Positions 1,466 through 46,362 of a DNA stretch of 64,000 nt are shown here, in pieces. A program made the position numbers and the translations under genes. The notes below the pieces were generated by a model. The model was not told where the DNA came from. It saw only the letters and a list, made by a program, of their open reading frames with translations, and ran no database searches. The DNA lies in contig DASZXC010000008.1 of the NCBI GenBank assembly GCA_035546035.1, positions 5,202-69,201 on the forward strand, read 5' to 3'. The stretch's first letter is position 1. The number at the start of each line of letters is the position of its first letter. This stretch comes from Minisyncoccota bacterium (GTDB lineage Bacteria; Patescibacteriota; Minisyncoccia; Phycocordibacterales; UBA6065).

Positions 1466-1571
1466 AAAACTTAAAAGATTAACGGAATAATGCCTAATAA
1501 TTTAACCTCAATAATTATAGCAATTAAAAATCCCGCAAGCGCAAGGCTTGGGGATAAAGAAACGGCCTTGT

Positions 1572-3442: not shown

Positions 3443-4741
3443 TCAAAATACGGATTTTACGGCCGCGATCAGATCCGTCGAACGGAAATAGGTCGAAAGC
3501 TCGCTCTTCCAATTCGGATCTTTTATGGAAACGTCGGGCACGACGCCGTTCGATTCGACAGGCTGATTGTCGTCGCGGAGCGTAAGGCTGTGAACGAGGA
3601 GCATCGAGTATCTCTCGCTCGGATCGATGACGGTCTCGATCGGAAACGTATTCTCGACGGTGCCCCATCCGCGCGTCGTTTCCCCGACCGAATGCGCGAG
3701 GCCGAGGCGCTTCATGGCGGCGGTCGTCACTTCAGCCGTCGACTGGCTCGCCCCATCGGTCAATATGGCGATCTCTTTGTATCGTCCGAGCTCGGCGAAT
3801 TTCGGCGCGGTCGTGCGCTGCGGCTTGTATTCGCCCTGATGGTACAGGTCATATGCGTACTGATTCTCTCCTATGAAAAGCCCGACGAATGCGGCCGCGA
3901 AGTCGAGCGATCCGCCCAGATTGCCGCGAAGGTCTATGATCATACTCGATAGGCCGGGCGTAGTCGTCGCTGACAGGATCGTCCTACCGAATTCGATGAA
4001 CGTCGTCGGCGATATGCTTGAAATGCTCACGTAAAGCGTCTTCCCTACCGCTTTGCTTTTGACCGTCGGCTCTATACCGCCCGCGTCATAGAGGTCTTTG
4101 GTATTCGGATTGGCGAGCACCTCCTTTGCATACGACACCTGTTCGAGCTCCTTTCGCGCTTCGGACGATGTCTTGGCTTCTGCGGCAAGGACCTTCTGCT
4201 TTTCCTCTGCTGCTTTGTTCACGTCTTCGGCGCTCGCGCCTGCGGCCAAGCCGAGGTCCTGATAGAGATTCTTCTCCGGATGGATATTGCTTACCCCCTG
4301 GCGCAGTTCGGTTTCCTGTACGGCGGAAAGGAGCTGCCCATGCCCCACGGGCTGCAGGTTATAGAGAGCGATGATGAGCGTATCCACGACCATCTGCTTT
4401 TTTGCGGCAGTGGACGTCGCGGCATCGATCGCGGTCTTGAGCATTTCTGCCGTCCCGACGCGGTTGCGAGTCGCGAGAAGCGGCACGACGGGGCTATTCA
4501 GGGCTTTCTGGAGCGAAAGCTGGAAATGGTCCGCCACCTGCTCTTCCGTCGTCGAAGCCCAGTAATTCTCGCGGATCTTGTCGTACGCTTCCATACCGAA
4601 ACGCACGTATGGGTCGGATTCTTCAGGAGTTTTATATGTCGCTTCAGCGGCGCGAGAATTCAGGCTGTGGAGCGTTGCGAACACGGCACCGCCGGCAAGT
4701 GCGAGAGAAAGGACAATAACGACGATACGTTTCAATGACAT
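3443..4741 (-). CDS. C-terminal processing (tail-specific) peptidase, S41 family, with N-terminal TM anchor and a J-domain-like insert
   Basis: S41 motifs are present (IIDLRGNLGG, TDGASQSTAEV). Confidence 0.75.
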   Translation of the reverse strand: MSLKRIVVIVLSLALAGGAVFATLHSLNSRAAEATYKTPEESDPYVRFGMEAYDKIRENYWASTTEEQVADHFQLSLQKALNSPVVPLLATRNRVGTAEMLKTAIDAATSTAAKKQMVVDTLIIALYNLQPVGHGQLLSAVQETELRQGVSNIHPEKNLYQDLGLAAGASAEDVNKAAEEKQKVLAAEAKTSSEARKELEQVSYAKEVLANPNTKDLYDAGGIEPTVKSKAVGKTLYVSISSISPTTFIEFGRTILSATTTPGLSSMIIDLRGNLGGSLDFAAAFVGLFIGENQYAYDLYHQGEYKPQRTTAPKFAELGRYKEIAILTDGASQSTAEVTTAAMKRLGLAHSVGETTRGWGTVENTFPIETVIDPSERYSMLLVHSLTLRDDNQPVESNGVVPDVSIKDPNWKSELSTYFRSTDLIAAVKSVF

Positions 4742-7317
4742 GTAGAGGGGGCATTAGTAATTCCTCGAAGGAGGCAGAAGCATATGGCCCGGAGCGAAGA
4801 AAAGAGTTTAGTCAGTATTGTGCACGCGAGCTTATAGGCTTCAGTATACCAGAAAGACGGCGCGGTCCTTGAAATTATGGCCGCGGAAATGGATGCATTC
4901 GCAGGCTTTTCATTATCTTCTTCCACGTCGTTGGTAAAAATCACGACCTTTTCGTGAGAATTGTCGTGAATAGTATCAGAAGTTGCGCTAGGCATAGCGA
5001 CAAGAGCTTTTCTGCTTGGTGGCATAGGCCTCAACGCCGCACCTGGCTCCGTATCCGTTGGGACTGGCGGAGCAGGCGCTTCCGCCGAGGTCCCTCTTTC
5101 TTCAATTCCCTGCACCGCACCATCAATAATTTTCAATTCCAGGCTTCTACTTTCGCTGGGCGTGATCTGATCAGTAAAACTTGAAAAAGACGAGGTTGCA
5201 TCGGAGACAGACTCGGTCTCGACGGTATATTCACCATATCCAGTGCCTTGAACTTCGATTTCATATGTTCCGTCTATTGGATCAGGGATAGATATGAAGT
5301 GGATTTCAGCGTCATCGCCTGAATAAAATACTCCCGGAGTATCGAGGGCATCTTCTCCTACCGGAGATAGGACGCTCATCTTCGCCGGAGAATGCATAGA
5401 TATAATGAGGATATCTCGAGGCATAAAAAACGGACCTGATGAAGAGATAGGCGTAGTCGTCGCGCCGAGCATATCCAAGACGAGCGATGCCGCCTTGTCA
5501 GGCAATTCAGAATGAGTCGATGCGATCGGCGTATCTGACCCCATATAAAGAAAGGCGCTCCGCATAGGCACCGTGCCATCGCCGAGATCATATTCAAAAC
5601 CGATCGGCGTTCCATGCATCCATTTTTCAGAGGTCGTCGCGCCCTTGTCCGCGGTGATGATCGAAAGAGTATTCGTACCGCTATTCCCGACGATATTGCC
5701 TACCCTCAATGATGGATTGCTTAAAGAGTTTTTATTTCGATCGAGATTCTCAAGGAAAAGATTCGCCGGATAGCCGTCAGGATAGAAGGCCGGCTTATTG
5801 TAATCAGTCGTATCGATATATCCGTATATGGGCAGAAGCTCACTTACGGAAGGAACTTCGCCGCTTCGCATATAGCTCAAAGCACCCTTATATCCATGTG
5901 CCCGGGCATAGAGATCGATGAGGATTTTAAGCACCCTGTCCCACAGAGAATTACTGCCCATCTCCCCTCCTTCAGCCATAAGATATGCCAAAGGAGCGCC
6001 GTGCTGGGGAGTGCCAAGGAATATAAGATCGGCCACGTCGTTTCTGTAATCGACGGATTCTATGTACGATCTGACCGCGAGACCTCCCATCGAGTGAGCG
6101 ACGACGTCTACTTTCGGGCAGCCGCAGATATGTTTTATCTCCTCGATCCTATCTTTTAGAGCATTGCCTGTATCCACGTTCGATCTTCTCCAATCATACG
6201 GAAAGGTAAAAAGGGTCGAGGTCCCGTAGCCGACCCTCTCAAGCACGGTCACGAGTCCGTCGTATGTATGGAAGACGGGATCTAAAATCCATTTAGTTCC
6301 TAATTGAAATGAGCCGAGGATACCAGGAACGATGACGACCGGCCTTTTAAGAGAGGACTCTCCGAGATTCTGCTCTAACGCAGCCGTTTTTTCGGTTGAA
6401 GTCGCTCCGACATCGGGAGAATATGTGAGCCATGGGAAAAAATCGGTTCGCGGAAAGATCCATGACCCTATGCCTGCAATATTATCGCTATATCTCGGCC
6501 CTGACTGGTCTCCCCACCAATTGTTAATTGCCGTAACAGTTCCAGCGTAGGCAGAGAGCACATCGACCCCATTCTCTATACCGATGAAACTCGAGTTCTG
6601 TATAGAGATATCGCCTCCTTCGATATGCACCCCTTCTTTTCCATTAAGAAAGAGCGAATCGGTGATTCTAAGGACTCCCGTAGATTCTACGGACAGAGCT
6701 GCCCATGCGGGCGCGTTGAATGTAGAATACGTTACCGACAGATTGCCCCTCACAAGGATCATCGGCAGATCAGTGCAGCCGGTATGACAGGAATGCTCGC
6801 CTCCATATTCGACGACCACGTGAGAAAAGATGCTTTGGGAACCTGCGTCTATGATGATCGGATCTTCCCAATCCCCGGCAATGGGATTTTGAGAATTCGA
6901 TGTAAAGACAATCGGCTCTTCGGCAGTTCCACGAGCCTCGATATTGCCGAGCGCATCGAGGAAAAAGCCGTCGGCCATACGGACCTCGACTCCGGGTTCG
7001 ATTGAGAGCGTTAAGTCCTCCGGGATATTGAGGCCTCGATCTAATATATAAGGACTTCCCTCCTTTATCCATGAAGTGGAAGAAGCGAGAGTCTCGTCAG
7101 CGATTACTGTCGAAGCATGAGCAAAATCGGCCCATGACCAAGCACATATAATAAGAAGGAGGGGACGGAGAAAATGACTACCGTACGGTCGCAGTCTGCG
7201 CTGATTCTCCTTTTTCCTGAAAATGTCCGGTGATATAGAGGATACCGAGAGACGCCAGGATGATAGCGCCGAGGCCGAGAGCGAATCTAAAGAAATCTTT
7301 GTCGAACATGGCTTCAT
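4732..7317 (-). CDS. Membrane-anchored extracellular LCAT-like alpha/beta-hydrolase (lipase/acyltransferase) fused to an N-terminal parallel beta-helix domain
   Basis: 861 aa. A TM/signal-anchor segment lies at about aa 55-75. Beta-helix-like repeats follow. The hydrolase domain has FPYDWRRS, nucleophile elbow VVAHSMGG and GDGTVP. A Ser/Thr-rich C-terminal region ends the protein. Confidence 0.65.
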   Translation of the reverse strand: MKPCSTKISLDSLSASALSSWRLSVSSISPDIFRKKENQRRLRPYGSHFLRPLLLIICAWSWADFAHASTVIADETLASSTSWIKEGSPYILDRGLNIPEDLTLSIEPGVEVRMADGFFLDALGNIEARGTAEEPIVFTSNSQNPIAGDWEDPIIIDAGSQSIFSHVVVEYGGEHSCHTGCTDLPMILVRGNLSVTYSTFNAPAWAALSVESTGVLRITDSLFLNGKEGVHIEGGDISIQNSSFIGIENGVDVLSAYAGTVTAINNWWGDQSGPRYSDNIAGIGSWIFPRTDFFPWLTYSPDVGATSTEKTAALEQNLGESSLKRPVVIVPGILGSFQLGTKWILDPVFHTYDGLVTVLERVGYGTSTLFTFPYDWRRSNVDTGNALKDRIEEIKHICGCPKVDVVAHSMGGLAVRSYIESVDYRNDVADLIFLGTPQHGAPLAYLMAEGGEMGSNSLWDRVLKILIDLYARAHGYKGALSYMRSGEVPSVSELLPIYGYIDTTDYNKPAFYPDGYPANLFLENLDRNKNSLSNPSLRVGNIVGNSGTNTLSIITADKGATTSEKWMHGTPIGFEYDLGDGTVPMRSAFLYMGSDTPIASTHSELPDKAASLVLDMLGATTTPISSSGPFFMPRDILIISMHSPAKMSVLSPVGEDALDTPGVFYSGDDAEIHFISIPDPIDGTYEIEVQGTGYGEYTVETESVSDATSSFSSFTDQITPSESRSLELKIIDGAVQGIEERGTSAEAPAPPVPTDTEPGAALRPMPPSRKALVAMPSATSDTIHDNSHEKVVIFTNDVEEDNEKPANASISAAIISRTAPSFWYTEAYKLACTILTKLFSSLRAICFCLLRGITNAPSTCH

Positions 7318-7344
7318 AGTAGCATTCTTGGTAAGGCTTATAAA

Positions 7345-8619
7345 TCATTTCTCGAGCGCTCTTATGAGACGGGATCTCACCTCTTCGAGAGTGAGATCTC
7401 CTGCATAAGGTTGAACCGACGTCTGGGCGATCACTTTTCCTGACGGATTTGCTATGCGGATGAAATCCTTGGGTGAGTCGATATTGACCATATCGAGAGG
7501 GATCTCAATGGATGAAAGCGGGAGAATAATCGTGTCTTGAGGGAATGCGAACCTCTTTTCAGAGTCTTCAAGGATAAATCCGCCGATATTCACTTCTCCT
7601 TTACCTTGATTCGACAGCAGCATCCGTCCAGGTAAAAGGGATAGCGCTATGGAGGGTTCGATTATCCTGACCTTCACCTTGGCGACAGCGTGGAATCCTC
7701 CATAATCAGTATTCGTAATCACGATATAATCGCCAGGATACTGATATGCATGCGAAACGATCTGTCCGATGAGAAGCGACCCGTCCCCCATCGTCCATAC
7801 GCTTCGCAGGCCAGAACCGACGGCAACGTCTTTCGACTTCTTTACCTTTGCTTCAAAGGAGAGCGGCGCGCCGACGAAGCCTATGCGCGGTCTTCCTGCG
7901 GTCACTTCGAATTGAGGAGCGTCATAGGAAGTGTTGGCGACCTCCTGACTGCTATGAGCCGAGGTATCCGAATCACCAGACGATGAAGAGCTTCCGCTGT
8001 CTGAGCCCATGGAATCGCCTGATTGATCATCGGTACTTCCGCCTTCTTCAGCGGGAGGAGCCGCGGATTCCGTTGCGATCGTCACCGATCCGACCGATAC
8101 GGCAGCGGCGATCCACTCTCCTGTTCCTGTTTTCTGCAAGGTATTTCCGTCACCGGCAGCGCCAATCATTGGATCATAAGAGACGCTATCCATAGATACG
8201 CCCGTATCATCATCAATGCTGATCGTCTCGCCTTCATTGCTCAAGGAAAAAGCGCTGTCGAAAAGAAGTCCTGAAAATCCCGGATTATCGATCTTGAACT
8301 TATCAGGATTGTCAGCGATGACTGCGAATCCGCCTGCCGGGAGAAGCGATTCGCCGATCACGGAAATCTTGTGATTTACGCCGCCCTCGACGAATCTCCA
8401 TGTTGAAAGGTCTACGGATTCCGATCCGGTATTCTGTACTTCGACCCATTCCCTGCCGGAATCGGTTCCCGGCGCGTCATACATGATTTCGGTTATCGCC
8501 GCGGCCGCTGAAACACCTAGAGGTATAGACGCAAAAAGCCAAACGAAAAGCATGAGTCTCCACGCCGCCGTGTCGGAAAATTTCGCCGGATATTTTTTAC
8601 GATAAGAAAGAGTCCGCAT
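7345..8619 (-). CDS. Secreted lamin-tail-domain (LTD) protein with PKD-like domain
   Basis: N-terminal signal peptide. LTD signature ITEIMYDAPGTDSGREWVEVQNTGSESVDLSTWRF. A Ser/Asp-rich linker follows. PKD-like motif TMGDGS...HAYQYPGDYIV. Confidence 0.65.
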   Translation of the reverse strand: MRTLSYRKKYPAKFSDTAAWRLMLFVWLFASIPLGVSAAAAITEIMYDAPGTDSGREWVEVQNTGSESVDLSTWRFVEGGVNHKISVIGESLLPAGGFAVIADNPDKFKIDNPGFSGLLFDSAFSLSNEGETISIDDDTGVSMDSVSYDPMIGAAGDGNTLQKTGTGEWIAAAVSVGSVTIATESAAPPAEEGGSTDDQSGDSMGSDSGSSSSSGDSDTSAHSSQEVANTSYDAPQFEVTAGRPRIGFVGAPLSFEAKVKKSKDVAVGSGLRSVWTMGDGSLLIGQIVSHAYQYPGDYIVITNTDYGGFHAVAKVKVRIIEPSIALSLLPGRMLLSNQGKGEVNIGGFILEDSEKRFAFPQDTIILPLSSIEIPLDMVNIDSPKDFIRIANPSGKVIAQTSVQPYAGDLTLEEVRSRLIRALEK

Positions 8620-8664
8620 GGAAACATGTTCGCATGCGGACTCTTAAGAGAGAGTGAGGGAAAT

Positions 8665-9630
8665 TTAATAACTTATACGGTCGACAATCAAACCGGAAAC
8701 ATCATACAAAGTAATAGTCTCTTTGTTCGCCGCCCACAATTCCCTCCCTTTGCCCAAGAATATGCGCCACTTTTTCAGGGAAAAGCCCGCGTCGTTCCTG
8801 TGGACCGCCACGCAGGCGGGATAGCTTAATCGCCCCGCCATGAATGCCCTGCACTGCGCCGTCTGCAGGTCATAATTGGTCTTGTCGTATTTGTACGGAT
8901 CCTCGCAACGGTTCAAAGACTGCATATAGTCATAGCATTCGCTCGTCACCGTGTTTATAGCCGGGTCGTTCGTCGGATACGGGCAGCGCTGCTCGAGGGC
9001 CGGCTCGAATGGATAGTTCTTCAGGTATCCTTCGCAGATATTCTCGCGGAACGAGGTAGAAATGGAATAAGGGAATTGGGAAAAAGCCTGACCCGTCGTA
9101 ACGACGGCCGTATCGCCCGCCGCCAAAAGGATATGCCCGACCTGGAACGATCCCGACGGATCGAGGAACTGCGTGCCCTGCCCGATCGTCGCCGAATCCG
9201 CCGTCGGATATATGTAGCTGTTCTGGCTTGTCTGGATCGGACGGGTTCCCTTGCCGTTGGTCAGCGTCCAACCCGTGATGTCAACCGACGTCTGGCCGTA
9301 GTTCTGGAGCGTCACGTATTCTTCGAACGGCTGTATAGAATAGCTCGCATTTCCCATGCCGAGCGACACTCTGCCCGCGTATGCCGATCGCTGCCCCGCG
9401 GGGATGTCGTCCGAATTGCCTCCGGAGCCGTAACTCGATCCGCCGCCCGTGCCCCCCGACCCGCCGTCGAGGAAGCCCAGAAGCGGGTTGTTGCCGCCGC
9501 TCGTCTGGCCGTATCCGCCCGGCGAATTGATGCTGCCTCCTCCGCCGATATTCGTCGGCACGTATTTCGCTGCCGATGCGAGGACGATGAAAATGACGCA
9601 GACCATGACGACGATGAGTGCGATCTTCAT
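8665..9630 (-). CDS. Secreted LTD-like protein with Gly-rich N-region and Cys-rich C-terminal domain (paralog of 61944..62816)
   Basis: The likely start is the internal Met (MKIALIVV...). The ORF track extends to 9690. LTD-like motif EEYVTLQNYGQTSVDITGWTL. The C-terminus CEGYLKNY..CPYP..YPACVAV..WRIFLGKGRELW..ITLYDVSG.IVDRISY is shared with the 290-aa protein at 61944. Confidence 0.6.
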   Translation of the reverse strand: MKIALIVVMVCVIFIVLASAAKYVPTNIGGGGSINSPGGYGQTSGGNNPLLGFLDGGSGGTGGGSSYGSGGNSDDIPAGQRSAYAGRVSLGMGNASYSIQPFEEYVTLQNYGQTSVDITGWTLTNGKGTRPIQTSQNSYIYPTADSATIGQGTQFLDPSGSFQVGHILLAAGDTAVVTTGQAFSQFPYSISTSFRENICEGYLKNYPFEPALEQRCPYPTNDPAINTVTSECYDYMQSLNRCEDPYKYDKTNYDLQTAQCRAFMAGRLSYPACVAVHRNDAGFSLKKWRIFLGKGRELWAANKETITLYDVSGLIVDRISY

Positions 9631-9769
9631 GATGAATCCTCTCTGCGCGGAAAGCCTGTTCTTCATGGATTCATTATATCCATACAACACAAAAGCCGCA
9701 TCTTGCGATGCGGCTTTTGCCGAAACTTACGTCAAACCTTTCGGTTGAAGTAGGCTCTGTACGCTACCG

Positions 9770-11656
9770 TTAAGGGAGCGATACAGCTGCCGTCCTCCAA
9801 GCCGTCTGGCCTGCCATGAAGTTCGAAGTGGTCGTACCAGTACCGTCAGTGTTCTTGCTCCACGCAACCGACTCGAGACCTACGGCGTAGGAACCGGTCG
9901 AAAGGAGAGAACCAGCGGTCGTCCTACCCTCGAAGACGAAGTCTACAGGGATAGTGACCGAGTTGTTCTGAGCGAGCTTGAATGCCTGAGGGCCTGCGAG
10001 ATCCGTAACACCCGACGATGGCGTAGACCATGCAACGCTGGTGTTGTTGCTCAAGCTGGTCTTAGCACCGTTCTGGTAGATACCGAAGGTGAAGGTGTTG
10101 TTAGGAGCCTGGTCTGCGAAGACGATGTCGCCGCCGACTGCGGTGATCGTGAGGTTGAACGTTGCATCTGCGGTCGAGGTCGAGAAGTTGTTCTGAGATG
10201 CAGTCGCCGACTTCGTGATCGTAGCCGAGTTGAGCGTGAAGACAGGGCCTACGCTTCGGACGTTGAAGGTGTTACCCGTAGCAGTACCCGATGGGTTGAC
10301 CGTCGAGCCCTGAGTGTTCTGAGCGACTGGGCCGTTAGCGGCGACAGTGGCGTTGAACGTAGAGTTCGAGGTGCCTGCGTTCTGAATATCAGCCTTGATC
10401 GTGAGGACCTTAGTGGTGTCCTGAGGTACCCAGTAGTTGATGTTCGAGAATACAGCCTTACCCGTCGAGGTGTTGACCGATGCCGAGCCGATCAAGGTCG
10501 AACCGTCATAGAGGTAAGCAGCGGTTGCAGTAGCAGCGCCGGTACCGTTGACGGTTGCCGTGAGGTCGGTGATCTCAACCTGGTCCTTCTGAGCGCGAAC
10601 GTCGAACGCGAGGAGAGGGAGCTTGTCGTACTGGTTGTTGTTTGCACCAGCAGAAGCTACGACATCCGAAGCGAGGAAGTTAGCAGCGTCAGTCGAGACG
10701 AGGAGCTGAGCGTTATCGGTGAGCGAACCCGAGACGGTGACCGTCTGCGAGAACTGCGAGATAGGACCGTACTGGTCGATGCCAGCGCCGTCCGTACCGC
10801 GAACCGCGTTCGAAGGAACCGTGATGGTTCGAGAACCGAGGTCGCCAGACTTGATCGACGAGTAGAGGTCAGCCTTGATGGTCAAGTACTTCGTAGAGTC
10901 CTTTGGAACATTGTAGCTGAAGCCGCCGAGGGTGAGGAGGTAGTCGGTACCAGACTTAACAACAGTGTTGCTGTTGAGGTCAGCCTGCGCGAGAACCTTA
11001 CCCGAGTCGTCTACTACATACATGGTCTTGAAGACCTTGGTGTAGATAGTCGTGTTCGTGCCAAGATCGAGCTGAACGCGCTGGACGTTGATGTCCGAGA
11101 GCTTCGACTGGAGCTTGAGAGAAACGACAGGGATCATCGTCTGTCCTTCGTAGACCGTGATGTTCGAGATCGAACCCTGGTCAACGGTGAGGATGCCTTC
11201 AACGCCAGAGTTTACTACTGGGTTAGAGGAACCGCCGGTGGTGCCGGTCGACGAGGTGCCGTTGAGCGATGCGCGGGTGAGAGGGCCTACGTAACCCGTT
11301 GCTGGGATGCCGTGTGCCGACTGGTACGCGACGACAGCCGCCTTCGTGATCGAACCGAAGTAGCCAGTTGCTGGCGATACTCCGAGAGCGTTCTGGAGAG
11401 CGGTGACGTCAGCGCCCGACGAACCGACCGTGAGGTCCTTCGTGAACGAAACCGACGACGACGAGTTCACTGCTGCCAACGCGGCCTGGGCCTTGTCAGG
11501 AGAGATGATACCCATCTGGATAAAGAGGTTGACGAGCTGCGTCAAGGTCATTGCCTGTGCCGAAGCTGCCGAAGCCCCTACTGCTGCGAAGACCGTGAGA
11601 GCCATCGTGAAACCGATGACTGCTGCAACAACCTTCGAAGTTGTTTTAATTTGCAT
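9770..11656 (-). CDS. Large secreted surface (S-layer-like) protein with N-terminal peptidoglycan-binding domain and Ser/Thr/Asn-rich repeats
   Basis: 628 aa with a signal peptide. PG_binding_1-like segment (DVTALQNALGV...GYFGSITKAAVVAYQSAHGI). Internal repeats are visible (TKYLTIKADLYSS / TKVLTIKADIQNAG). Very low K/E content. Confidence 0.6.
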   Translation of the reverse strand: MQIKTTSKVVAAVIGFTMALTVFAAVGASAASAQAMTLTQLVNLFIQMGIISPDKAQAALAAVNSSSSVSFTKDLTVGSSGADVTALQNALGVSPATGYFGSITKAAVVAYQSAHGIPATGYVGPLTRASLNGTSSTGTTGGSSNPVVNSGVEGILTVDQGSISNITVYEGQTMIPVVSLKLQSKLSDINVQRVQLDLGTNTTIYTKVFKTMYVVDDSGKVLAQADLNSNTVVKSGTDYLLTLGGFSYNVPKDSTKYLTIKADLYSSIKSGDLGSRTITVPSNAVRGTDGAGIDQYGPISQFSQTVTVSGSLTDNAQLLVSTDAANFLASDVVASAGANNNQYDKLPLLAFDVRAQKDQVEITDLTATVNGTGAATATAAYLYDGSTLIGSASVNTSTGKAVFSNINYWVPQDTTKVLTIKADIQNAGTSNSTFNATVAANGPVAQNTQGSTVNPSGTATGNTFNVRSVGPVFTLNSATITKSATASQNNFSTSTADATFNLTITAVGGDIVFADQAPNNTFTFGIYQNGAKTSLSNNTSVAWSTPSSGVTDLAGPQAFKLAQNNSVTIPVDFVFEGRTTAGSLLSTGSYAVGLESVAWSKNTDGTGTTTSNFMAGQTAWRTAAVSLP

Positions 11657-12219
11657 GATTTGTGTGTACTTCTAGTAATGAGGAAACGAAGGCTTTGATT
11701 GATAAACGATGCTTCGCTTCCTGATTAACCGACTGAATAATCTTTCACTCCCTCCCCCGATTTCGACTTCGTGGGGAGGAAATGCGGACCAAGAGCTTTC
11801 GCCCGCGGTCCTCGACTATTCCCCTGGGATTTATTTTCCCAGCGCTCTGGCTTCGAACCATCTGGATGAACAGACCGGCTCGAGTTCAGAACGCTGGGTC
11901 GACTCGACCCCAAAGGCATAGTTATAAGGGTGATGAGGTGCGGCTGAAATTCTGTAGACCGTCCGGGACGAACGGATCGCCTGAAACTTTTTTGATCGCT
12001 ATGCGGTTTTCAATGGTCGAGAAGACGGAAAGAAGCTGCGGTTCTGTAGCCTGTCAATTATATGATGGTTCCCTTAAGGGCACCACCTATAACGATGTGG
12101 ATAAAGCGGGACGGGGCCTTATATAAGGCCTTTTTCCTGGATATATGCCACTTCTATATATTATACGAAAAAAGGCCAAAAAGCAAGTCATCCTCGATAG
12201 GGCCGGCAAGGGACCGATA

Positions 12220-13074
12220 CTAGGGGTTTTGGGCCAAAGAATAGGTGCTCCAACGCCTCTCCCCCTCTTTTTTAAGGACTCCCGAAGCGACCATAGCGAG
12301 AAGCTCGCGCTGGATGGTCTTTTCGCTCACGCCCTTGATGTTGCCTACGAAGTCCTTTACGCCAAGGCCGCTTTTCTTGGAAAGGAGCTTGATAATGATG
12401 GCCTGGCGACTGTCTTTAGAGTCATATGTCTTTGACGTCCGTGCCTCGGTGTCTTTTGGGAGAAGATGTTCGTGCTTTCGGGCCGGGACCGGAGCCTCGG
12501 CCGAAGGAGCCTGTGTCCTTGATTGCGACACCGTCTGTCCTTTATGAGCGGACAGCGGCTCGGGAACGGCTTCCGGGGCGCGCGGAGCGGTTCGGAGAGG
12601 CTCCGGTTCGCCCGCGGCGAAGAACGACGGGTCGAGTATGACGGTCTCTTCGTTCGCCTGCTTGTTCTCATCCTTTTCTATGACGGAGACAAGGCCGTTG
12701 AATTCGCGGGAAAGGATATGGAAATTCATCTCGGAAATAAGGCCTGCGTGGGATGCGACGCTCGAAAGCGATACGATCTCGAGAGCAAGCGCGCGGTATT
12801 CGCGGAGAAGCTCGCGGCGCTCGGCGAGCGATACCGAAACCCAGTCCAGATTAAGCTCCATGAGAGAAAGAGCCGCCTCGCGGATCTTCCATTTCAGAGG
12901 CTCGTTATCCTTTATGAAATTGGTGATCATATAGATCGCCGTGACGAGCTTTTCTGTCTTTTTGTATATAAAAGCGAAGTGGCGATTCGGCCCAAAGACG
13001 ATACCGGCATTGAGCCCCCTTTCGGTAGCCCGCGGTTCGAGGCTTTTATCCTGATTGTGCGGCGTCCCTTCCAT
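12220..13074 (-). CDS. Putative DNA-binding protein with C-terminal winged-helix domain
   Basis: 284 aa. The C-terminal segment IIIKLLSKKSGLGVKDFVGNIKGVSEKTIQRELLAMVASGVLKKEG looks like a wHTH. It is divergent from ftsK. Confidence 0.45.
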   Translation of the reverse strand: MEGTPHNQDKSLEPRATERGLNAGIVFGPNRHFAFIYKKTEKLVTAIYMITNFIKDNEPLKWKIREAALSLMELNLDWVSVSLAERRELLREYRALALEIVSLSSVASHAGLISEMNFHILSREFNGLVSVIEKDENKQANEETVILDPSFFAAGEPEPLRTAPRAPEAVPEPLSAHKGQTVSQSRTQAPSAEAPVPARKHEHLLPKDTEARTSKTYDSKDSRQAIIIKLLSKKSGLGVKDFVGNIKGVSEKTIQRELLAMVASGVLKKEGERRWSTYSLAQNP

Positions 13075-17158: not shown

Positions 17159-17334
17159 CTGCACTTGGTTACTTCATCTTGGAAAAGAGCTCCTCCGTAG
17201 AAGAGGATAAAAAAGCGGTAGTTAAGAAATAATGAAGATTTTCCGGCATCTGTGGACAACCTGCTGTTCATGAGCTAGGATAAAGCCCTATTAAGCCGTA
17301 TTTAGAAATTAAGCCTCTTTTTTAATCCCCTGCC

Positions 17335-17925
17335 ATGGCACTCCTTGAATACAACGAAGTAACCGCGCGAAAGTACATCATCTTCGAAGGCGAGCCCTAC
17401 GAAGTCGTCGAGAACAATATCTTCCGCATGCAGCAGCGCAAGCCGCAGAACAAGACGAAGATCAAGAATCTTCTGAACGGCCGCGTCGTCGAGGCGACGT
17501 TCCACGCATCCGACAAGGTCGAGGAAGCCGAGATCACGAGCGAGGAAGCGAAGCACCTCTACGCCAACAAGGGCGAATACTGGTTCTGCGACGCAGAGGA
17601 TCCGTCGAAGCGCTTCAAGATATCTACCGAGGTGCTCGGCAACCAGGCGCTTTTCCTCAAGGCGAACACGATATACGAGACCAAGATCTTCGTAGACCCT
17701 GAGACCGAGGAAAAGACCATATTCGGCGTGAAGCTCCCTCCTACCGTCGATTTGAAGGTCGTCGAGGCCCCTCCGGGCATCAAAGGCGACACCGCCCGCG
17801 GCGGCAACAAATTGGTCAAGGTAGAGACCGGCGCCATGATCTCCGCTCCCCTCTTCGTGAACGAAGGCGAGACTATCCGCATCAATACCGAGACCGGCGA
17901 ATACCGCGAGCGTGTCACCAAATAG
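17335..17925 (+). CDS. efp: Elongation factor P
   Basis: 196 aa with the EF-P three-domain pattern. Confidence 0.9.
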   Translation: MALLEYNEVTARKYIIFEGEPYEVVENNIFRMQQRKPQNKTKIKNLLNGRVVEATFHASDKVEEAEITSEEAKHLYANKGEYWFCDAEDPSKRFKISTEVLGNQALFLKANTIYETKIFVDPETEEKTIFGVKLPPTVDLKVVEAPPGIKGDTARGGNKLVKVETGAMISAPLFVNEGETIRINTETGEYRERVTK

Positions 17926-25385: not shown

Positions 25386-27305
25386 CTATTTTTGCACCGT
25401 CTCGTCGCCGTTCTTGTAGAAGAGGTCGCTCGTTATCCTGGTCGAAAGGTCAGGGCTCGTATTCTTAAGGCTCGAGCTCGTGAATACGTCCGTACCCGTA
25501 ATCGCTTGCTGAAGTATGAGCGTAGGCACCATGCCTGACTGATTCGCCGACGGGCGAAGCGATATCTGGAACGCCACCTGCTTTGCCCCCGATCCGACAT
25601 CGGCGTTTCGCGGCACATCGCCCACATCCCAGGTTATGGTGTCGGCCTGGTCGTCATAGCTGATATTGGCGTCTGCGGGGCTCACCGTACCCGTCCAGGT
25701 CACATAGGGAGGCAATACGGCCGTTACCTTCGCTCCCGTGATGGTATTCGAAGTATTCGTTACTGTCCAGATAACGGTATAGGTCGTCGGCTGGTCTACG
25801 CGCGGCGGTACAGGGCCGCTGTTACTGATGGGACCCTGGGAATGCACGGCGCGAGCAGAAAGGGAGAGGTTCGAGACAAGCCTGATCGCGCGCGAAACGG
25901 CAGTGTTCACGGACTGCGGGGCGCCAGTCTCGTCCACGCGGCTGCCCTGCGCCGACACAGAGATCGTGATGCGAGGATCGGACGTAGATTGGCCGAGCGA
26001 CGGCAAAAGCGACGAGACGGTAAAGCTTACCCTGCCGTCTGCGCCCGGAGCTATGGTCGTAAGGCTACCCGCCCTTCCCGCTTCCCAGATGACCGAATCA
26101 GTGAGCGAATCATAATAGCCGCCGTCGCTCACGGTCACGGAATTGCGGTCGAGCACCGGACCGGAAAGCTTAGCGACGATGCGGGCATTGGTTATCTGGC
26201 TCGCGCTGTTATTCGTCCACAGCACGTCGGCATGAACGGTGCGGCCTGCGGCCGAAGCGATATCGGCGCGATTGCCGTCGAGAGCAAGATCGACGCCGAG
26301 GAACGGCTTTTCGATGATGAACGTGTGGTCCTGGGTGACGATCGTCGTCGCTATCTCGCGCTCGTTCGTCGCGCTCTGGATGCCGACATCGGCATGGACG
26401 GCTTTTTCTTCCCCGTCCGTTCCCGAAGCGGTCGCGCGAAGCGTGATGACGCGCTTGCTGCCCGGAGCAAGGTCGCCGATGCGCCACGTATTGTCGCCGT
26501 ACGCGGCGGCAGGATTCGACGAGACGACGGAGAATCCGAACGGATAGTCGAGGGAGAGCAAGAGATCCTTGACCGGGGATGCCGTATTCGAGGAAACGGT
26601 TATGGTCATGTCGAACGACTCGCCGCCAAGCACCTTGTCGAGCGTATCTATGGCGACGACGATCGGAGAGGAAGAAATAGTGACATGATATACCTTCTCC
26701 TTGAAGAAGATCGCGTTCGATCCCGCGGTCCGGTATTCGGCGGTGAATTTGATGTCTTTGACATCGCCTTCCTGGCCATAGAGGAGGGCAGAAAGGCTCT
26801 TCTGGGCGACCGACTGGGAATCTACGTCTCCCATGGATACGCGCGTCTGGGTCAGGTCTTTCGAAGGGTCAGCGGGATCTTTGGTGCCGTCAGGATATTC
26901 GGCGATGAGGTCTACGAGCTGGATCGCTGTCTGGTTCTTGTTCGCGACGGTGACGCCCAGACGGAGCTCCTCCCCTCCGGAAACGGTCGCCGGACCCTCG
27001 ACGAGGATGTCTACGTTGTCCACCGATACGAAATTCCCTCCGGAAAGGAAGGTGTAGGCCGCTATGATAAGAGCGGCGAAAAGAAAGAGCGCCGAGCAGA
27101 CGAAGACTATCTTGTAGGCATAGCGGCGCTCGGAAGTGAGCGTCGGGACTTCGGCCGAATGGTCTTCAGGTCGATCCCATGATTCAGGGACCGCTTCGCC
27201 GCCCGCATGTATATCGTGGCGCGGAGCCTCCGTCTGGGAGACATTGCGCGAATAGAGGCCTTTCTTGAGCCGGTCGAGCGGGCTTTTCTTGTCGGATTCG
27301 AACAT
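25386..27305 (-). CDS. Large membrane-anchored extracellular protein with repeated beta-rich (DUF11/CARDB-like) domains
   Basis: 639 aa. A TM helix lies near aa 60-85. Ser/Thr/Val-rich repeated segments follow. Confidence 0.5.
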   Translation of the reverse strand: MFESDKKSPLDRLKKGLYSRNVSQTEAPRHDIHAGGEAVPESWDRPEDHSAEVPTLTSERRYAYKIVFVCSALFLFAALIIAAYTFLSGGNFVSVDNVDILVEGPATVSGGEELRLGVTVANKNQTAIQLVDLIAEYPDGTKDPADPSKDLTQTRVSMGDVDSQSVAQKSLSALLYGQEGDVKDIKFTAEYRTAGSNAIFFKEKVYHVTISSSPIVVAIDTLDKVLGGESFDMTITVSSNTASPVKDLLLSLDYPFGFSVVSSNPAAAYGDNTWRIGDLAPGSKRVITLRATASGTDGEEKAVHADVGIQSATNEREIATTIVTQDHTFIIEKPFLGVDLALDGNRADIASAAGRTVHADVLWTNNSASQITNARIVAKLSGPVLDRNSVTVSDGGYYDSLTDSVIWEAGRAGSLTTIAPGADGRVSFTVSSLLPSLGQSTSDPRITISVSAQGSRVDETGAPQSVNTAVSRAIRLVSNLSLSARAVHSQGPISNSGPVPPRVDQPTTYTVIWTVTNTSNTITGAKVTAVLPPYVTWTGTVSPADANISYDDQADTITWDVGDVPRNADVGSGAKQVAFQISLRPSANQSGMVPTLILQQAITGTDVFTSSSLKNTSPDLSTRITSDLFYKNGDETVQK

Positions 27306-27838: not shown

Positions 27839-30800
27839 TTAGCGGCGCAAAGCTATGCGAAACGAGTATTCTTCCACCTTCATTTCTTCAGCCTGCGGGA
27901 GATGGGCATGCTCTATGCCCGTGACGAGCGTTATCCTCTTTATATCGTGAAGGAACGCATGCGCGAGCTCTTTGCCCTTCTCATCCGAATCAAGGGCAAG
28001 GGAGACCTTGTCGTCCACGGTCAGATTCTCTTTCTTGCGAAGCTCCTGGACCGAGCGTATGAGGTCTCGGATCACGCCCTCCTTGCGGAGCCCTTCAGTC
28101 ACGTCCGTATCGAGAGCCGTTTCAGCGGCTATCGTATGGTCCACGCCGACGGCTTTGACGTTCACTTCGTCTTTGATGAGGTCGATGAGGTCGGCGCCCA
28201 GCGAGGCGTTCTTGATGACCAGCTTGGCGAGAGGCTGGCGGACCTTGATGTTCGCCTTCGATCGTTCCTGGAGAGCGATCGTCACGATCTTCCGCGTCTC
28301 TTCCATCGCCTTCACGATTTTTCCATCGACGGAGGCTTCTGCCGGCCAATCTGCGAGGTGTACGCTTTCGGGATCGTTCGAACGCCTGATACGGCTGAAG
28401 AGATAGTCGGCGTAGAAAGGAATGAAGGGCGCGGCTATTTTCGCGAATTCGGCGAGGACGAATCGGGTCGTGGAAAGAGCCGCCTCTTTGTCGGCGCGGT
28501 TGTCAGATTTGAATCGGTCGCGCGATCGGCGCAGGTACCACGTCGAAAGGTCGTCTACGAACGACATCAACGGTCGCGCGGCCTTATCGAGCTGATAGAA
28601 ATCGAGATATTCGGTCATCTCGTTTCTTGTCTCATTGAGGCGCGCGCGTATCCAGAGGTCAAGAACGCTCTTTGAATCGGTTCTCGATGCCTTTTCGCTC
28701 TCTCCCCTGTTCGCGTACATCTCATAGAAAGCGAGGACGTTGTCGAGGCGCTGGATGAGCTTCTTGGACACTTCGTCTACGCCTTTTTCAGAGAAGCAGA
28801 GGTCCTGAGCGGCCACGACCGGAGAGGAAAGCAGATAATAGCGGAGAGAGTCGGCGCCATATTTGCCGATGACTTCGAGCGGGTCGGGATAGTTATTGAG
28901 GCGCTTGGACATCTTCTCGCCGTCTTCAGCCAAGATGATGCCGTTCACGACGACGTTCTTGTACGGGCTCTTTCCGAAGAGACCGACGCCGAGGACCATC
29001 ATGGAATAGAACCAGCCGCGAGTCTGGTCTAGGCCTTCGGCGATGAAATCGGCGGGATAGCCCTTTACGCCGCCCAAAAGACCTCCAAGCCTGCCGTTCG
29101 GATCGAAATGCTCCAAAGCCTTGCCGCGATAGTTCGATTCGCCGTACGGCATCGAGCCCGATTCGAACCAACAGTCGAATACTTCCGCTACGCGGACAAG
29201 CTTTTCGCCGTCCGGCGCGACGCATTCGACCGTATCTATATACGGCCTATGGAGGTCGAGATCGAATCCCCTGTTATGCGGCAAGCGAACAAAGTCGAAC
29301 GGATGGCATTCGCCCGTTTTTTGGAAATAGCGGCGCTCGTCGTGGAGGATCTTGTCCTCGGACGCGGTCTCGCCTATCCCATGAAGGATCGTGTTCAGAG
29401 GCGAGCCGTGGCTCACGATGAGGATCTTCTTGCCCGAATATTTTCTATCTATATCGAACATCGCTTCGAAGACGCGCTTCTTCAAATCCACCGGCGTTTC
29501 CATACCCGGGAAGAGCCCGTGCGTGCGGACGTGACGATCCGTCTCGGCCCACAGCTTGCCTTCCCTGTCGGGACCGACGTTGTATTCGCGGAGGCGGACG
29601 TCATAGACGATCTCGTTCTCCGGTATGCCGCAGGCATCGGCTATCATGCGCGCCGTCTCTTTGGTGCGCTCGAAATCGGACGCGACGATGACGTCGACGC
29701 CTTGCGCGGCGATCTTTTTGGCGGCTTCAGCGATCTGCTGTCTGCCCTTTTCGGTGAGGCCGTAATTTTTGGAGAGACTTATGTTCGAATTCGAAACGCC
29801 GAGAGCGTTCGCCTTCGATTCGCCGTGGCGGATGAGCGTATATGAATTGCCTGATCGCTGTATGAGCTTCGCCAGATCGGATATACCCCCGATCGGATAG
29901 AGCTTGCCCGAATCGACTCCCTTCCAGACAGGGATAGGGGCGCCCCAGAAGCGCGAGCGCGATATGGCCCAGTCGCGGGCGCCTTCGAGCCATTTGCCGA
30001 AGCGCCCGTCGCGGATATCGTCCGGCGTCCAAGAGACTTTTTTGTTCGCAGCGACGAGCTTGTCCTTGAACAACGTGACGCGGACGAACCACGATGACGC
30101 AGCGTAATTGAGGAGCGGCGTGTCGCAGCGCCAGCAGTGGGGGTACGAGTGGACGATCTTCTTCTTGTCGAAGAGAAGGCCGTGATGAGCGAGCCATTTG
30201 ACAATCTCGATATCGGTCTTCTGATGACCGTCCTTTTCATCAGACTTGGGCTTGACCGGCTGACCCGCGAAATCGGCGACTTCCGGCTTGAACGTTCCGT
30301 TCATAGCCACGTGCTGGATGAAAGGCAGGTCGTTCGCCTGGCCGAGCTTCATGTCATCGTCGCCGAACGCCGGCGCTATATGCACGATGCCGGTACCGTC
30401 TTCGGTCGTGACGAAATCGGCGGCATATACCTTGAATCCGTTCTTTTCATCCTTGAGAGAGCCGTCGAGATAGTATGAGAACGCCGGCTCGTATCCGTCG
30501 CCGACGAGCTCGCGGCCCTTTATGACGGAGACGAGCGCGTGCTCCTTGCCCGCGAATACGTCGGCGACGCGGTCGCGCGCGACGATATATGTCGCATTCT
30601 CGTACGATACGCGGGCGTAATCGATATCAGCGCCTACGGCCAAGGCGACGTTTCCGGGAAGCGTCCACGGCGTCGTGGTCCAGGCGATGAAGTATTCATT
30701 CGGAGGAGTCCCCTTCCTCTTCATTTTGACGAATACGGATATGTCGGTGATGTCCTTGTATCCCTGATTCACCTCGAAATTGGCGAGCGTCGTCTCGCAT

Positions 30801-31363
30801 CGCGGACATATCTGCATAGACTTGAAGCCTTCGTAGACGAGACCTTTGTCGAAGAGCGTCTTGAACGCCCACCAGACGGACTGGGTGTATGCCGCGTCCA
30901 TGGTGCGATAGTCGTCATCCATGTCTACCCAGCGGCCGATGCGGGGTATGATCTTTCTCCAGTCATGGGCGTATCGAAGGACGCTCTCTTCCGCCACGGC
31001 ATTGAATCTCTCCATGCCGTAATCGACGATGTCTTTTCGCGATCTGAGGCCGAGCTCCTTTTCGACCAAGTTCTCTACCGGCAGGCCGTGACAGTCCCAG
31101 CCCCAGCGCCGCGCGACATGATACCCGCGCATAGTCTTGTAGCGCGGAACGGCGTCTTTGATGAACGAAGCCAGCATGTGGCCGTAATGTGGAAGGCCGT
31201 TCGCGAACGGCGGGCCGTCATAAAAGACGAATTCCTTGCCTTTTTTGTCGAGAGATTTCTGGAAGATCTCCTTTTCGTTCCAAAAAGAAAGTATCTTTTC
31301 CTCTATTTCGACCAGTTTGGTCTTCGGCTTGGTTTCCGGTTGGGTTTTGGGAGCGTCTGCCAT
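27839..31363 (-). CDS. ileS: Isoleucyl-tRNA synthetase (type 2) with an inserted histidine-phosphatase-like domain
   Basis: 1174 aa. PHYGH, WAISRSRFWGAPIPVW and KMSKR motifs are present. Confidence 0.9.
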   Translation of the reverse strand: MADAPKTQPETKPKTKLVEIEEKILSFWNEKEIFQKSLDKKGKEFVFYDGPPFANGLPHYGHMLASFIKDAVPRYKTMRGYHVARRWGWDCHGLPVENLVEKELGLRSRKDIVDYGMERFNAVAEESVLRYAHDWRKIIPRIGRWVDMDDDYRTMDAAYTQSVWWAFKTLFDKGLVYEGFKSMQICPRCETTLANFEVNQGYKDITDISVFVKMKRKGTPPNEYFIAWTTTPWTLPGNVALAVGADIDYARVSYENATYIVARDRVADVFAGKEHALVSVIKGRELVGDGYEPAFSYYLDGSLKDEKNGFKVYAADFVTTEDGTGIVHIAPAFGDDDMKLGQANDLPFIQHVAMNGTFKPEVADFAGQPVKPKSDEKDGHQKTDIEIVKWLAHHGLLFDKKKIVHSYPHCWRCDTPLLNYAASSWFVRVTLFKDKLVAANKKVSWTPDDIRDGRFGKWLEGARDWAISRSRFWGAPIPVWKGVDSGKLYPIGGISDLAKLIQRSGNSYTLIRHGESKANALGVSNSNISLSKNYGLTEKGRQQIAEAAKKIAAQGVDVIVASDFERTKETARMIADACGIPENEIVYDVRLREYNVGPDREGKLWAETDRHVRTHGLFPGMETPVDLKKRVFEAMFDIDRKYSGKKILIVSHGSPLNTILHGIGETASEDKILHDERRYFQKTGECHPFDFVRLPHNRGFDLDLHRPYIDTVECVAPDGEKLVRVAEVFDCWFESGSMPYGESNYRGKALEHFDPNGRLGGLLGGVKGYPADFIAEGLDQTRGWFYSMMVLGVGLFGKSPYKNVVVNGIILAEDGEKMSKRLNNYPDPLEVIGKYGADSLRYYLLSSPVVAAQDLCFSEKGVDEVSKKLIQRLDNVLAFYEMYANRGESEKASRTDSKSVLDLWIRARLNETRNEMTEYLDFYQLDKAARPLMSFVDDLSTWYLRRSRDRFKSDNRADKEAALSTTRFVLAEFAKIAAPFIPFYADYLFSRIRRSNDPESVHLADWPAEASVDGKIVKAMEETRKIVTIALQERSKANIKVRQPLAKLVIKNASLGADLIDLIKDEVNVKAVGVDHTIAAETALDTDVTEGLRKEGVIRDLIRSVQELRKKENLTVDDKVSLALDSDEKGKELAHAFLHDIKRITLVTGIEHAHLPQAEEMKVEEYSFRIALRR

Positions 31364-43849: not shown

Positions 43850-43890
43850 AAAATTAATCTTGAATCCTAAGTATAGCACAACCTAACAGC

Positions 43891-46098: not shown

Positions 46099-46137
46099 AC
46101 TCGTTTTCGGATTACCCAGTAACCGAAGATAGTACGT

Positions 46138-46358: not shown

Positions 46359-46362
46359 AGGA

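Follow-up and report, generated by a model that had tools for sequence, protein, structure and literature searches.

The closest described counterparts of the locus reported here are the surface-layer (S-layer) genes of Gram-positive bacteria, such as those for Bacillus Sap/EA1 (which carry SLH anchors), Lactobacillus slpA and Clostridioides SlpA (CWB2), and DnaA-regulated promoters, as in dnaA autoregulation in E. coli and the DnaA regulons of B. subtilis and Caulobacter. The locus lies in a 64-kb stretch of DNA (hereafter, the window) from a Candidatus Paceibacterota (Parcubacteria, Candidate Phyla Radiation or CPR) metagenome-assembled genome (MAG), and it is centered on the gene for a peptidoglycan-binding protein, P4, and on the non-coding gap that precedes it. 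The CPR envelope "remains unclear" according to a genome paper (PMC5220378), a preprint (10.1101/2022.04.20.488981) describes a Nealsonbacteria cell with an "apparent S-layer", and a literature search for an identified CPR S-layer protein returned nothing specific. Within the class Paceibacteria, Kuroda et al. (mBio 2024, PMC10936435) reported high expression of proteins with a peptidoglycan-binding domain (PGBD) in Ca. Yanofskyibacterium, Microsyncoccus and Minisyncoccus, with PGBD proteins "with relatively similar structures" among the five most-expressed signal-peptide genes in metatranscriptomes of three Paceibacteria. Likened to P4 by their published description, not by sequence, these proteins share with it the class and the combination of a signal peptide with a peptidoglycan-binding domain; one of them (692 aa) follows a protein of 343 aa that has no signal peptide. 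That study differs in reading the PGBD proteins as host-attachment enzymes, and it contains no description of the locus, promoter box or leader presented below. On balance, we lean towards reading the locus as a class-wide coat-protein locus, consisting of P4 with its own promoter and leader, followed by a variable slot for accessory genes.

Comparison of 79 loci, one genome per species, together with five loci retrieved by exact protein look-up, established that the block is made up of a class-wide anchor gene, P4, and a variable slot that extends from it to rplJ, and that it is not a fixed four-gene module. An earlier note on this DNA had described four consecutive minus-strand genes (P4, P3, P2 and P1; Table 1), whose existence and stated domains are confirmed by the open reading frame (ORF) map and Pfam, and had taken them for a dedicated envelope or host-interaction locus. 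The envelope locus holds up, but the single dedicated unit does not, given the terminator after P4 and the discordant codon bias described below. The order of a divergent FtsK gene, the gene for a protein of ~280 aa (up284), the gap and P4 is near-universal among the loci, down to 27% P4 identity, up284 being found in 62 and FtsK in 61 of 66 loci, and the downstream distance from P4 to rplJ is 1.0-9.3 kb, with a median of 5.6 kb. P3 is the next gene after P4 in 17 of the 22 loci with at least ~47% P4 identity and in 2 of 30 elsewhere; between P4 and rplJ, LTD-PKD-like genes are found in 28 and lipase-like genes in 20 of 52 loci. The full gene set recurs in close relatives, where an S41 peptidase lies between the cassette and rplJ, and in a Taylorbacteria relative the slot holds instead a metallo-beta-lactamase-fold protein, YceI, YHYH and others. 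Whether the block is conserved or variable among relatives, a check that the earlier note had proposed, therefore receives a split answer: P4 and its upstream neighbors are class-wide, and P3, LTD-PKD and lipase genes are variable.

The base composition of the slot also stands apart. G+C content at third codon positions (GC3) is 0.50-0.52 in P1 and P2 versus ~0.7 in the other window genes, their effective numbers of codons (ENC; 54.4 for P1 and 52.9 for P2) greatly exceed the window mean of 44.5, and overall G+C content across positions 4000-8000, the P1-P2 segment, is 0.50-0.52 versus ~0.55 in the rest of the window. This combination of low GC3 and high ENC fits a cassette that has been exchanged or turned over, as in a recent acquisition. 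The slot between P4 and rplJ would collect accessory exoproteins, represented here by a predicted membrane-anchored LTD protein with six Cys, an LTD-PKD protein, a beta-helix lipase and an S41 protease, and it is a natural place to seek host-range or niche determinants.

The anchor gene encodes a protein with the layout of an exported wall-binding protein. Residues 81-131 of P4 match PG_binding_1 (PF01471) at 45.4 bits (Pfam cut-off 23), and in an AlphaFold2 model (41 homologues, pLDDT 80) the three helices of this domain span residues 82-90, 102-114 and 125-132, with the signal region (aa 1-36) disordered. Signal peptides were judged for all products by a heuristic that combines hydrophobicity with A-x-A rules. 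In P4 the signal region comprises n-, h- and c-regions (Kyte-Doolittle 2.29) and an AQA-M junction after residue 35, and the AQA cleavage site is kept in 41 P4 homologues; under the same rules, all four products look extracytoplasmic, with N-terminal hydrophobic segments, in line with the surface or secreted location claimed for them. The mature protein has a pI of 4.9, lacks Cys and contains 14 N-x-S/T sequons. The compositional bias that had been ascribed to the block is real and peaks in P4, where S+T+N+G amounts to 40.3% (z = +4.1 against 62 other ORFs) and K+E to 4.6%, compared with a mean of 12.7%; S+T+N+G reaches 34.0% in P3 (z 2.7), 30.7% in P2 and 30.0% in P1 (z ~1.9 for both). More than 500 full-length homologues of P4, mostly 600-690 aa long, match it at 45-85% identity, and of 1.84 billion representatives searched, 201 clusters reach E<=1e-30. 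An exact look-up in the contig index gave no match for P4, but a protein that is 100% identical (P0001) is on record from a Ca. Paceibacterota MAG.

The earlier note had called P4 S-layer-like. Its wall-binding module stands, but the S-layer label holds as an analogy, since the folds are those of adhesin stalks and integrin legs and the anchor is not SLH. With Gram-positive S-layer proteins P4 shares a Sec signal, a non-covalent wall module, an outward beta-rich region and an acidic, Cys-free, T/S/A/N-rich composition, and its gene resembles S-layer genes in its apparently monocistronic organization, in a predicted promoter that is strong or tandem and is followed by a long 5' untranslated region (UTR), in a strong terminator and in the strongest codon bias of its region. 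This is a likeness of sequence and predicted structure. P4 departs from S-layer proteins in its PG_binding_1 anchor, which is not SLH, CWB2 or LysM (Pfam and NCBIfam detect no SLH, CWB2 or other S-layer anchor in it, only PG_binding_1), in three Ig-like domains without a fold match to solved S-layer proteins, and in unusually high conservation. Among the top 50 Foldseek matches in the PDB the closest folds are integrin legs, Saf pilus, antigen I/II C-domains, Bap and MSCRAMMs. Tandem-Ig wall-anchored adhesin stalks (antigen I/II C-terminal domains, Bap, MSCRAMMs; E 1e-10 to 1e-6) are surface-exposed repeats of beta-sandwiches, as P4 would be, but P4 has no LPXTG/sortase signal and no known ligand-binding head, its anchor is N-terminal and non-covalent, and the likeness is generic, as the TM-scores are low (0.1-0.2).

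Several features set P4 apart as a transcription unit. Its codon bias is the strongest of the 66 window ORFs (ENC 33.0, against 44.5 ± 6.3 on average), and both EF-P (34.5) and rplJ (39.0) lie above it, although ENC corrects only partly for amino-acid composition and P4 is rich in T/S/A/G/N. An intrinsic terminator, with an A-tract, an 8-bp GC stem, a GCAA loop and a U-tract, follows the gene, and an equivalent terminator is located 20-110 nt past the P4 stop in 43 of 45 loci. P4 hence appears to be monocistronic, that is, a separately transcribed gene, and it is probably very highly expressed. The strong expression published for PGBD proteins of three Paceibacteria (PMC10936435) agrees with this. 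Spacers of 79, 45, 27 and -10 nt separate P4, P3, P2, P1 and the S41 peptidase gene, in that order.

The gap upstream of P4 is the longest non-coding stretch of the window, as the earlier note had stated (11657-12219, 563 bp; the runner-up, at 45911-46362, has 452 bp), with length judged on a simple gene map as a stretch free of plausible genes. That note remarked only on its length, yet no other part of the locus is as conserved or as little explained. A plus-strand 114-aa ORF (11782-12126) and a minus-strand 64-aa ORF within it were rejected as genes because indels break their frames, and neither is called in the three relatives with gene calls that were inspected. The gap contains the 9-mer TTATCCACA, of which this is the sole perfect copy in the 64 kb. 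Class-wide, 61 of 68 loci carry the 9-mer between up284 and P4 and in this orientation, 92 forward copies were counted in 1.32 Mb of loci versus 5.5 expected, and the distance from the end of the box to the -10 hexamer is 30-33 nt in 56 of 64 loci. The -10 hexamer is a perfect TATAAT in 39 of these 64 loci and a 5/6 match in another 23 (shuffled sequences are perfect in 1.25% of cases), and the proximal -35 is weak, matching mostly at 3-4 of 6 positions. A second promoter, with a match of at least 9/12 no more than 130 nt upstream of the box, is predicted in 28 of 64 loci versus 6% of shuffles. The box is likewise missing before P4 paralogues without an upstream up284. The transcription start, placed from motifs as throughout this work, would lie near 12050.

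The fixed spacing of 30-33 nt between box and -10 hexamer gives the promoter the look of an activator-dependent promoter, not of an origin, and we infer that TTATCCACA is a putative activator site, for which DnaA is the obvious candidate binder and the winged helix-turn-helix (wHTH) protein up284 the alternative. The arrangement recalls that of the dnaA gene, with a perfect 9-mer DnaA box at a fixed position between an upstream and a proximal promoter, and it differs from known DnaA-regulated promoters in that the target is an envelope-protein gene and the putative binder is either DnaA or the adjacent wHTH protein. The gene for up284 lies directly upstream of P4 and is co-directional with it. 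No Pfam family scores above threshold in up284; HTH_DeoR aligns weakly with residues 223-269 (E 0.016), and a profile of 26 up284 orthologues weakly matches the BlaI repressor (E 0.023). Beyond this locus, one-mismatch copies of the box were observed at 1549-1557 (minus strand), before an MscS-like gene (776-1465), and at 17251-17259 (minus strand), before EF-P (17335-17925); in strength of codon bias, these two genes rank directly behind P4 in the window (ENC 34.2 and 34.5). In relatives, perfect copies occur before the MscS-like gene (locus L002 at 15644, L009 at 20989 and L014 at 21203) and near RecA/EF-P (L008 at 4377, L009 at 4543, L055 at 4779 and L056 at 4726). The box may mark a small regulon of strongly expressed genes.

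The gap aligns across 23 species-level relatives, and the inferred leader downstream of the proximal promoter, from near 12050 to the ATG, measures ~394 nt. It is an uncatalogued structured RNA, limited to one sub-clade and located in cis to P4 homologues. Covariance model R1, built on its core, recovers 24 species-level loci at 50-164 bits, along with three weaker ones, all of them directly upstream of P4, with 50-164 bits on the P4-sense strand versus at most 38 bits on the antisense strand (model E-values are rough). In the model-fitted alignment, 86% of cells are paired versus 73% after shuffling, 24 of 32 pairs show a compensatory change and controls with slid partners are 44-51% paired; an unfitted MAFFT alignment gives 84% versus 74.5%, 22 of 32 pairs and 39-50%, respectively. 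None of 500 shuffles reached the observed value in either alignment, and in the main hairpin both sides change at 11 of 12 pairs. The leader of the window folds at -142.6 kcal/mol, compared with -109.7 ± 6.4 kcal/mol for shuffled sequences (z = -5.2). The last ~25 nt before the AUG are CA-rich and near-invariant in the 23 leaders, the final ~20 nt being unpaired in the fold, and hairpin P7 is weakly supported, with the inner 4 bp alone kept in 14-17 of 21 sequences. RNAalifold found no consensus pairs on MAFFT alignments of the leader 5' domain and 3' tail.

The RNA was encountered in no other setting. A pattern scan of metagenome contigs returned 13 matches, of which eight are true by the model (101-141 bits) and lie, without exception, upstream of P4 homologues; the remaining five were considered as other genomic contexts for the core and dismissed as chance matches, with no model hit. 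Searches against Rfam 15 (4227 families) gave no credible match for the gap at E<=10 and none for five related loci at E<=0.1, and at gathering score the only Rfam families in the window are tRNAs; c-di-AMP/ydaO, 6S, SRP and RNase P RNAs were discarded as identities for the leader, as they produced no Rfam hits. Three GUCGA motifs lie in junctions or loops of the core. GTCGA occurs 68 times in the leaders of the window's sub-clade versus 7 expected, and 34 times versus 7 expected in the otherwise unalignable leaders of other clades, with 2 occurrences on the opposite strand; long leaders, of ~90-670 nt, are inferred in almost all clades. In distant leaders (e.g. L040, L045, L050, L059, L061, L065 and L071) we also observed a motif, CTTTGACAAT / CTTTGATAA, ~45-60 nt downstream of a conserved TATAAT, which resembles CATTGAAAAC of the window leader and may represent either an RNA motif or the -35 of another promoter. 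Two long-range pairings were considered and set aside: that of the leader 5' end with the start region, seen in the fold of the window and, by eye, not conserved in relatives, and that of a UGUGU junction with an ACACA start region, which is unsupported, the window having no UGUGU. Like ribosomal-protein leaders, riboswitches and ompA/slpA 5' UTRs, the leader would be co-transcribed with its gene and is strand-specific, with covarying helices and conserved junction nucleotides; unlike known structured leaders, it has a core of ~200 nt within ~390 nt and is associated with one gene family in one CPR sub-clade.

Such a leader stands out in this genome. A Shine-Dalgarno-like motif precedes 7 of the 66 window ORFs, and a -10 hexamer lies 4-9 nt before the start codon in 11 of 66, versus 3.8% in shuffles, which suggests that leaderless mRNAs are widespread in the genome (e.g. 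at starts 13308, 27305, 55577 and 57791). The absence of a Shine-Dalgarno sequence from the P4 translation-initiation region, UCAUUACUAGAAGUACACACAAAUC, is normal for this genome. A literature search on leaderless translation in Patescibacteria returned nothing specific.

Table 1. Features of the P4 locus in window positions (promoter, leader, terminator, domain-boundary and signal-peptide entries are predictions)
Feature	Position	Strand	Description
S41 peptidase	3443-4741	minus	10-nt overlap with P1 stop
P1	4732-7317	minus	861 aa; LCAT-type alpha/beta-hydrolase
P1 parts		minus	68-aa N-terminal extension and hydrophobic segment (AHA-S junction after residue 68); probable right-handed beta-helix, aa 69-320; LCAT-like alpha/beta-hydrolase; C-terminal beta-rich region; hydrophobic tail, ~aa 832-850
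P2	7345-8619	minus	424 aa; LTD + PKD
P3 (ORF)	8665-9690	minus	341 aa; LTD; 7 Cys
Intrinsic terminator after P4	9686-9718	minus	AAAA-GCCGCAUC-GCAA-GAUGCGGC-UUUUGUGUU
P4	9770-11656	minus	628 aa; PG_binding_1 wall-binding protein
P4 domains		minus	signal peptide, aa 1-35; helical hairpin, 38-64; PG_binding_1, 75-132; disordered S/T/G linker, 134-149
P4 outer part		minus	three tandem Ig-like beta-sandwiches, ~150-310, 315-470 and 470-628, reaching the C-terminus
Leader 3' tail	11657-11731	minus	candidate hairpin P7 (11726-11712 with 11691-11677), then CA-rich translation-initiation region UCAUUACUAGAAGUACACACAAAUC
Leader structured core	11732-11929	minus	198 nt; covariance model R1
Core helices P1/P2	11922-11907 with 11830-11815	minus
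Core helix P3	11898-11887 with 11849-11838	minus	with extensions
Core helix P5	11811-11801 with 11796-11786	minus	GAAA loop
Core helix P6	11784-11769 with 11760-11746	minus
Leader 5' domain	11930-12050	minus	conserved CAUUGAAAACCGCAUAGCGAU and others; in 19/23 aligned leaders
Proximal promoter	12057-12085	minus	-35 TGGTGC (12080-12085), 17-nt spacer, -10 TATAAT (12057-12062)
TTATCCACA box	12096-12104	minus	perfect DnaA-box consensus 9-mer, centered ~-49 of proximal promoter
Upstream sigma-70-like promoter	12158-12186	minus	TTGCTT, spacer, TATAAT/TAATAT; conserved in gap alignment
up284	12220-13074	minus	284 aa; N-terminal helical domain, disordered linker, C-terminal winged-HTH-like domain

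Taken as a coat-protein locus, the system would operate as follows. P4, as the major envelope protein, would be made as its own, very abundant transcript from a promoter with a perfect -10, a weak -35 and TTATCCACA at ~-49, running through the ~390-nt leader and ending at the intrinsic terminator; in the sub-clade, the leader would display its GUCGA motifs, bind a factor and/or stabilize the mRNA, and in this way set the amount of P4. The protein would be exported by Sec, cleaved after AQA (residue 35) and held non-covalently on the cell's own peptidoglycan through PG_binding_1, with the three Ig-like domains projecting outward on the flexible S/T/G linker to form a dense surface coat, possibly the S-layer seen on such cells. 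For the leader, a protein-binding and/or stabilizing role is favored over that of a metabolite riboswitch, because no expression platform was seen and the GUCGA motif is repeated. A narrower version of this reading, in which P4 is the surface-layer or coat protein of the Paceibacteria and is controlled both by the DnaA-box-type site at -49 and by a GUCGA leader read by a dedicated factor, is one that we consider unlikely as a whole. If it were true, the DnaA-box-type site would tie synthesis of the coat to replication or to the cell cycle, and these ultra-small bacteria would control their envelope through a circuit specific to their lineage.

The gap admits other explanations. A metabolite-sensing riboswitch gating P4 synthesis, in response for instance to a cell-wall precursor or a second messenger, would suit the multi-helix core, its highly conserved unpaired nucleotides and GNRA-capped peripheral helix, and a location that is in cis in every case; yet the element is found upstream of one gene family only, it shows no terminator/antiterminator pair and no conserved sequestering of the start codon, no Rfam family, ydaO (c-di-AMP) included, matches it at E<=10, and a thrice-repeated GUCGA is more like a protein-binding array, all of which makes a riboswitch quite improbable. 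The leader might instead act mainly as an mRNA stabilizer that keeps the start region open, as S-layer/ompA-type 5' UTRs do, without any sensing. Its very stable fold, the unpaired, CA-rich ~20 nt before the AUG, the apparently high expression of P4 and the occurrence of long leaders in almost all clades of organisms whose genome is otherwise largely devoid of leaders or Shine-Dalgarno sites are consistent with this possibility, which we nevertheless hold to be doubtful, as a simple stabilizer needs neither ~40 invariant unpaired positions nor a class-wide, strand-specific enrichment in GUCGA. The conserved perfect DnaA box, together with a cumulative GC-skew minimum at 8-10 kb, near the gap, could also point to a replication origin. 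Such an origin is highly implausible: the box stands alone instead of in a cluster, its fixed 30-33-nt spacing to the -10 hexamer is promoter geometry, no dnaA turned up among the ~20 window ORFs that were scanned against Pfam, the composition of P4 accounts for most of the skew signal, and the region downstream of the box displays RNA-type covariation with G-U pairs on one strand. An oriC in the gap was rejected on the single box and its promoter-type spacing.

At the scale of the locus, P4, P3, P2 and P1, together with the S41 peptidase, could form one co-regulated host-interaction operon in which P4 binds the wall of the host. The genes share a strand and short spacers, the full set recurs in close relatives, P4 has adhesin-like folds, a lipase together with a protease could act against the envelope of a host, and host attachment has been proposed for PGBD proteins (PMC10936435). 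Against a single operon stand the terminator after P4 in 43 of 45 loci, the sharp discordance in codon bias and GC3 between P4 and P1/P2, and the replacement or loss of the accessory genes in most species, in which P4 stays. As for the target, methanogenic archaea, to our knowledge, have no peptidoglycan. The PGBD-expressing Paceibacteria of the published work parasitize methanogenic archaea (PMC10936435), and binding to the cell's own wall is therefore the likelier of the two. Overall, we judge a host-interaction operon improbable. The coat-protein reading, in turn, has several observations weighing against it. Foldseek finds adhesin stalks for P4 and not S-layer proteins, with none among the top 50 PDB matches, and a family that keeps 45-85% identity over many species is highly conserved by the standard of S-layer proteins; the wall bound by PG_binding_1 could in principle be that of a bacterial host instead of the cell's own; the codon bias of P4 is partly confounded by its amino-acid composition; the leader lacks a recognizable expression platform, having neither a terminator/antiterminator pair nor a start codon that is consistently masked across relatives; and the kinship of the aligned leaders means that shuffle controls overstate significance, so that the slid-partner controls (39-51% paired) are the fairer comparison. 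Support for this reading comes from sequence and models, with signal peptides assigned by rules and transcription starts by motifs.

The proteins of the locus are new members of known families, and it is the architecture (anchor gene, -49 box, leader and slot) that is new; we found no prior description of a DnaA-box-type activator site at -49 or of the GUCGA leader RNA. P4 provides a concrete class-wide candidate for the building of the CPR/Patescibacteria envelope, and its fixed address between FtsK/wHTH and rplJ makes it findable in any Paceibacteria MAG. The promoter 9-mer, the covarying leader RNA absent from Rfam and the Shine-Dalgarno-poor genome supply handles on gene regulation in organisms for which almost none are known, the promoter-proximal TTATCCACA being conserved in nearly all species-level genomes examined.

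The accessory genes of the slot encode distinct exoproteins. The start of P3 is most likely the ATG at 9666 (333 aa; 8665-9666), since homologues begin there and a TATAAT lies 6 nt upstream (9673-9678), in a leaderless-type arrangement. The protein has a 25-residue transmembrane helix (aa 17-41 of the long ORF), followed by a disordered G/S/N linker and an LTD beta-sandwich interrupted by a helical insertion that carries six invariant Cys; its LTD scores 39.4 bits in Pfam, and membership in LTD (PF00932) is indicated by a score above gathering and an Ig-like sandwich matching the lamin tail. P3 was also considered as a type IV pilin and rejected, as it lacks the Glu+5 of a class III signal. 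A literature search on LTD proteins in Patescibacteria returned nothing specific. P2 has an N-terminal hydrophobic segment with a VSA-A junction, an LTD at 68.4 bits, PKD_4 (PF18911, 29.4 bits, cut-off 27) and PKD (PF00801, 27.9 bits, cut-off 23.5) matches at aa 235-301, and a C-terminal domain without assignment.

P1 had been described as a beta-helix lipase. The lipase part is borne out by PF02450 (49.6 bits, cut-off 21) and a match to B. subtilis LipA (E 4e-7), and with S409/D580/H602 set in AHSMGG, GDG and His motifs that are invariant in 21 homologues, P1 is, as judged from these residues, a lipase with an intact Ser-Asp-His triad. The beta-helix is supported via homologues only: Pfam gives no beta-helix match for aa 69-320 at E<=10, but a repeated module of P0218, another copy of which is called PF13229, shares 28% identity with this region (E 3e-17), and P0267 carries Beta_helix/NosD at the equivalent position. 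The GenBank model of P1 from the same MAG (P0210, 748 aa) starts 113 aa later and lacks the hydrophobic segment. Residues 1-68 of P1 (7114-7317, minus strand) make up a conserved S/R/L-rich extension with the consensus xKxCSTKLSSxSxS…, which is open in frame in seven relatives; gene callers report a shorter lipase at the P1 5' end and, in three of the relatives with inspected gene calls, a 29-43-aa ORF as well. The S41 peptidase, of the C-terminal processing type, matches PF03572 at 76 bits (cut-off 24) and TIGR00225 at 69.7 bits, below the 218.6 cut-off, and no PDZ domain was detected in it with Pfam and NCBIfam. Its first 27 residues are hydrophobic (Kyte-Doolittle 2.56 at aa 1-27), and it is thus part of the same run of proteins with such segments, which corrects the four-gene extent first given to the block.

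The genes around the block are, as had been noted, housekeeping genes, encoding rplJ, FtsK, RecA, EF-P, aminoacyl-tRNA synthetases and M16 peptidases. Among them, a 1174-aa isoleucyl-tRNA-synthetase-type protein (27839-31363, minus strand) carries a histidine-phosphatase (His_Phos_1) domain at aa 509-664 that separates the two halves of its catalytic domain. The second-longest ORF-free stretch (452 bp) contains no Rfam family at gathering score. In two distant genomes (L020 and L052), a repeated palindrome has TTATCCACAG as its two arms (for instance TTATCCACAGTCCAAGGCGGGTCCTTGGACTGTGGATAA) and is found at 12756-12820, 17869 and 19621 in L020 and at 1075, 3391, 14976, 15129, 15829, 20854 and 20886 in L052; the copies are intergenic, scattered around surface-protein genes, and have a REP- or MITE-like look. 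Finally, two adjacent genes of the window (47766-49136 and 49133-50476, minus strand) encode S/T/N/G-rich, K/E-poor proteins of 456 and 447 aa without a Pfam hit, and proteins of similar composition are encoded at 43250-43879 (209 aa) and 25386-27305 (639 aa, DUF11). The 456/447-aa pair is located a few kb from a PilM-containing gene run (54498-55577), a proximity suggesting that a second surface or pilus cluster may be present there.

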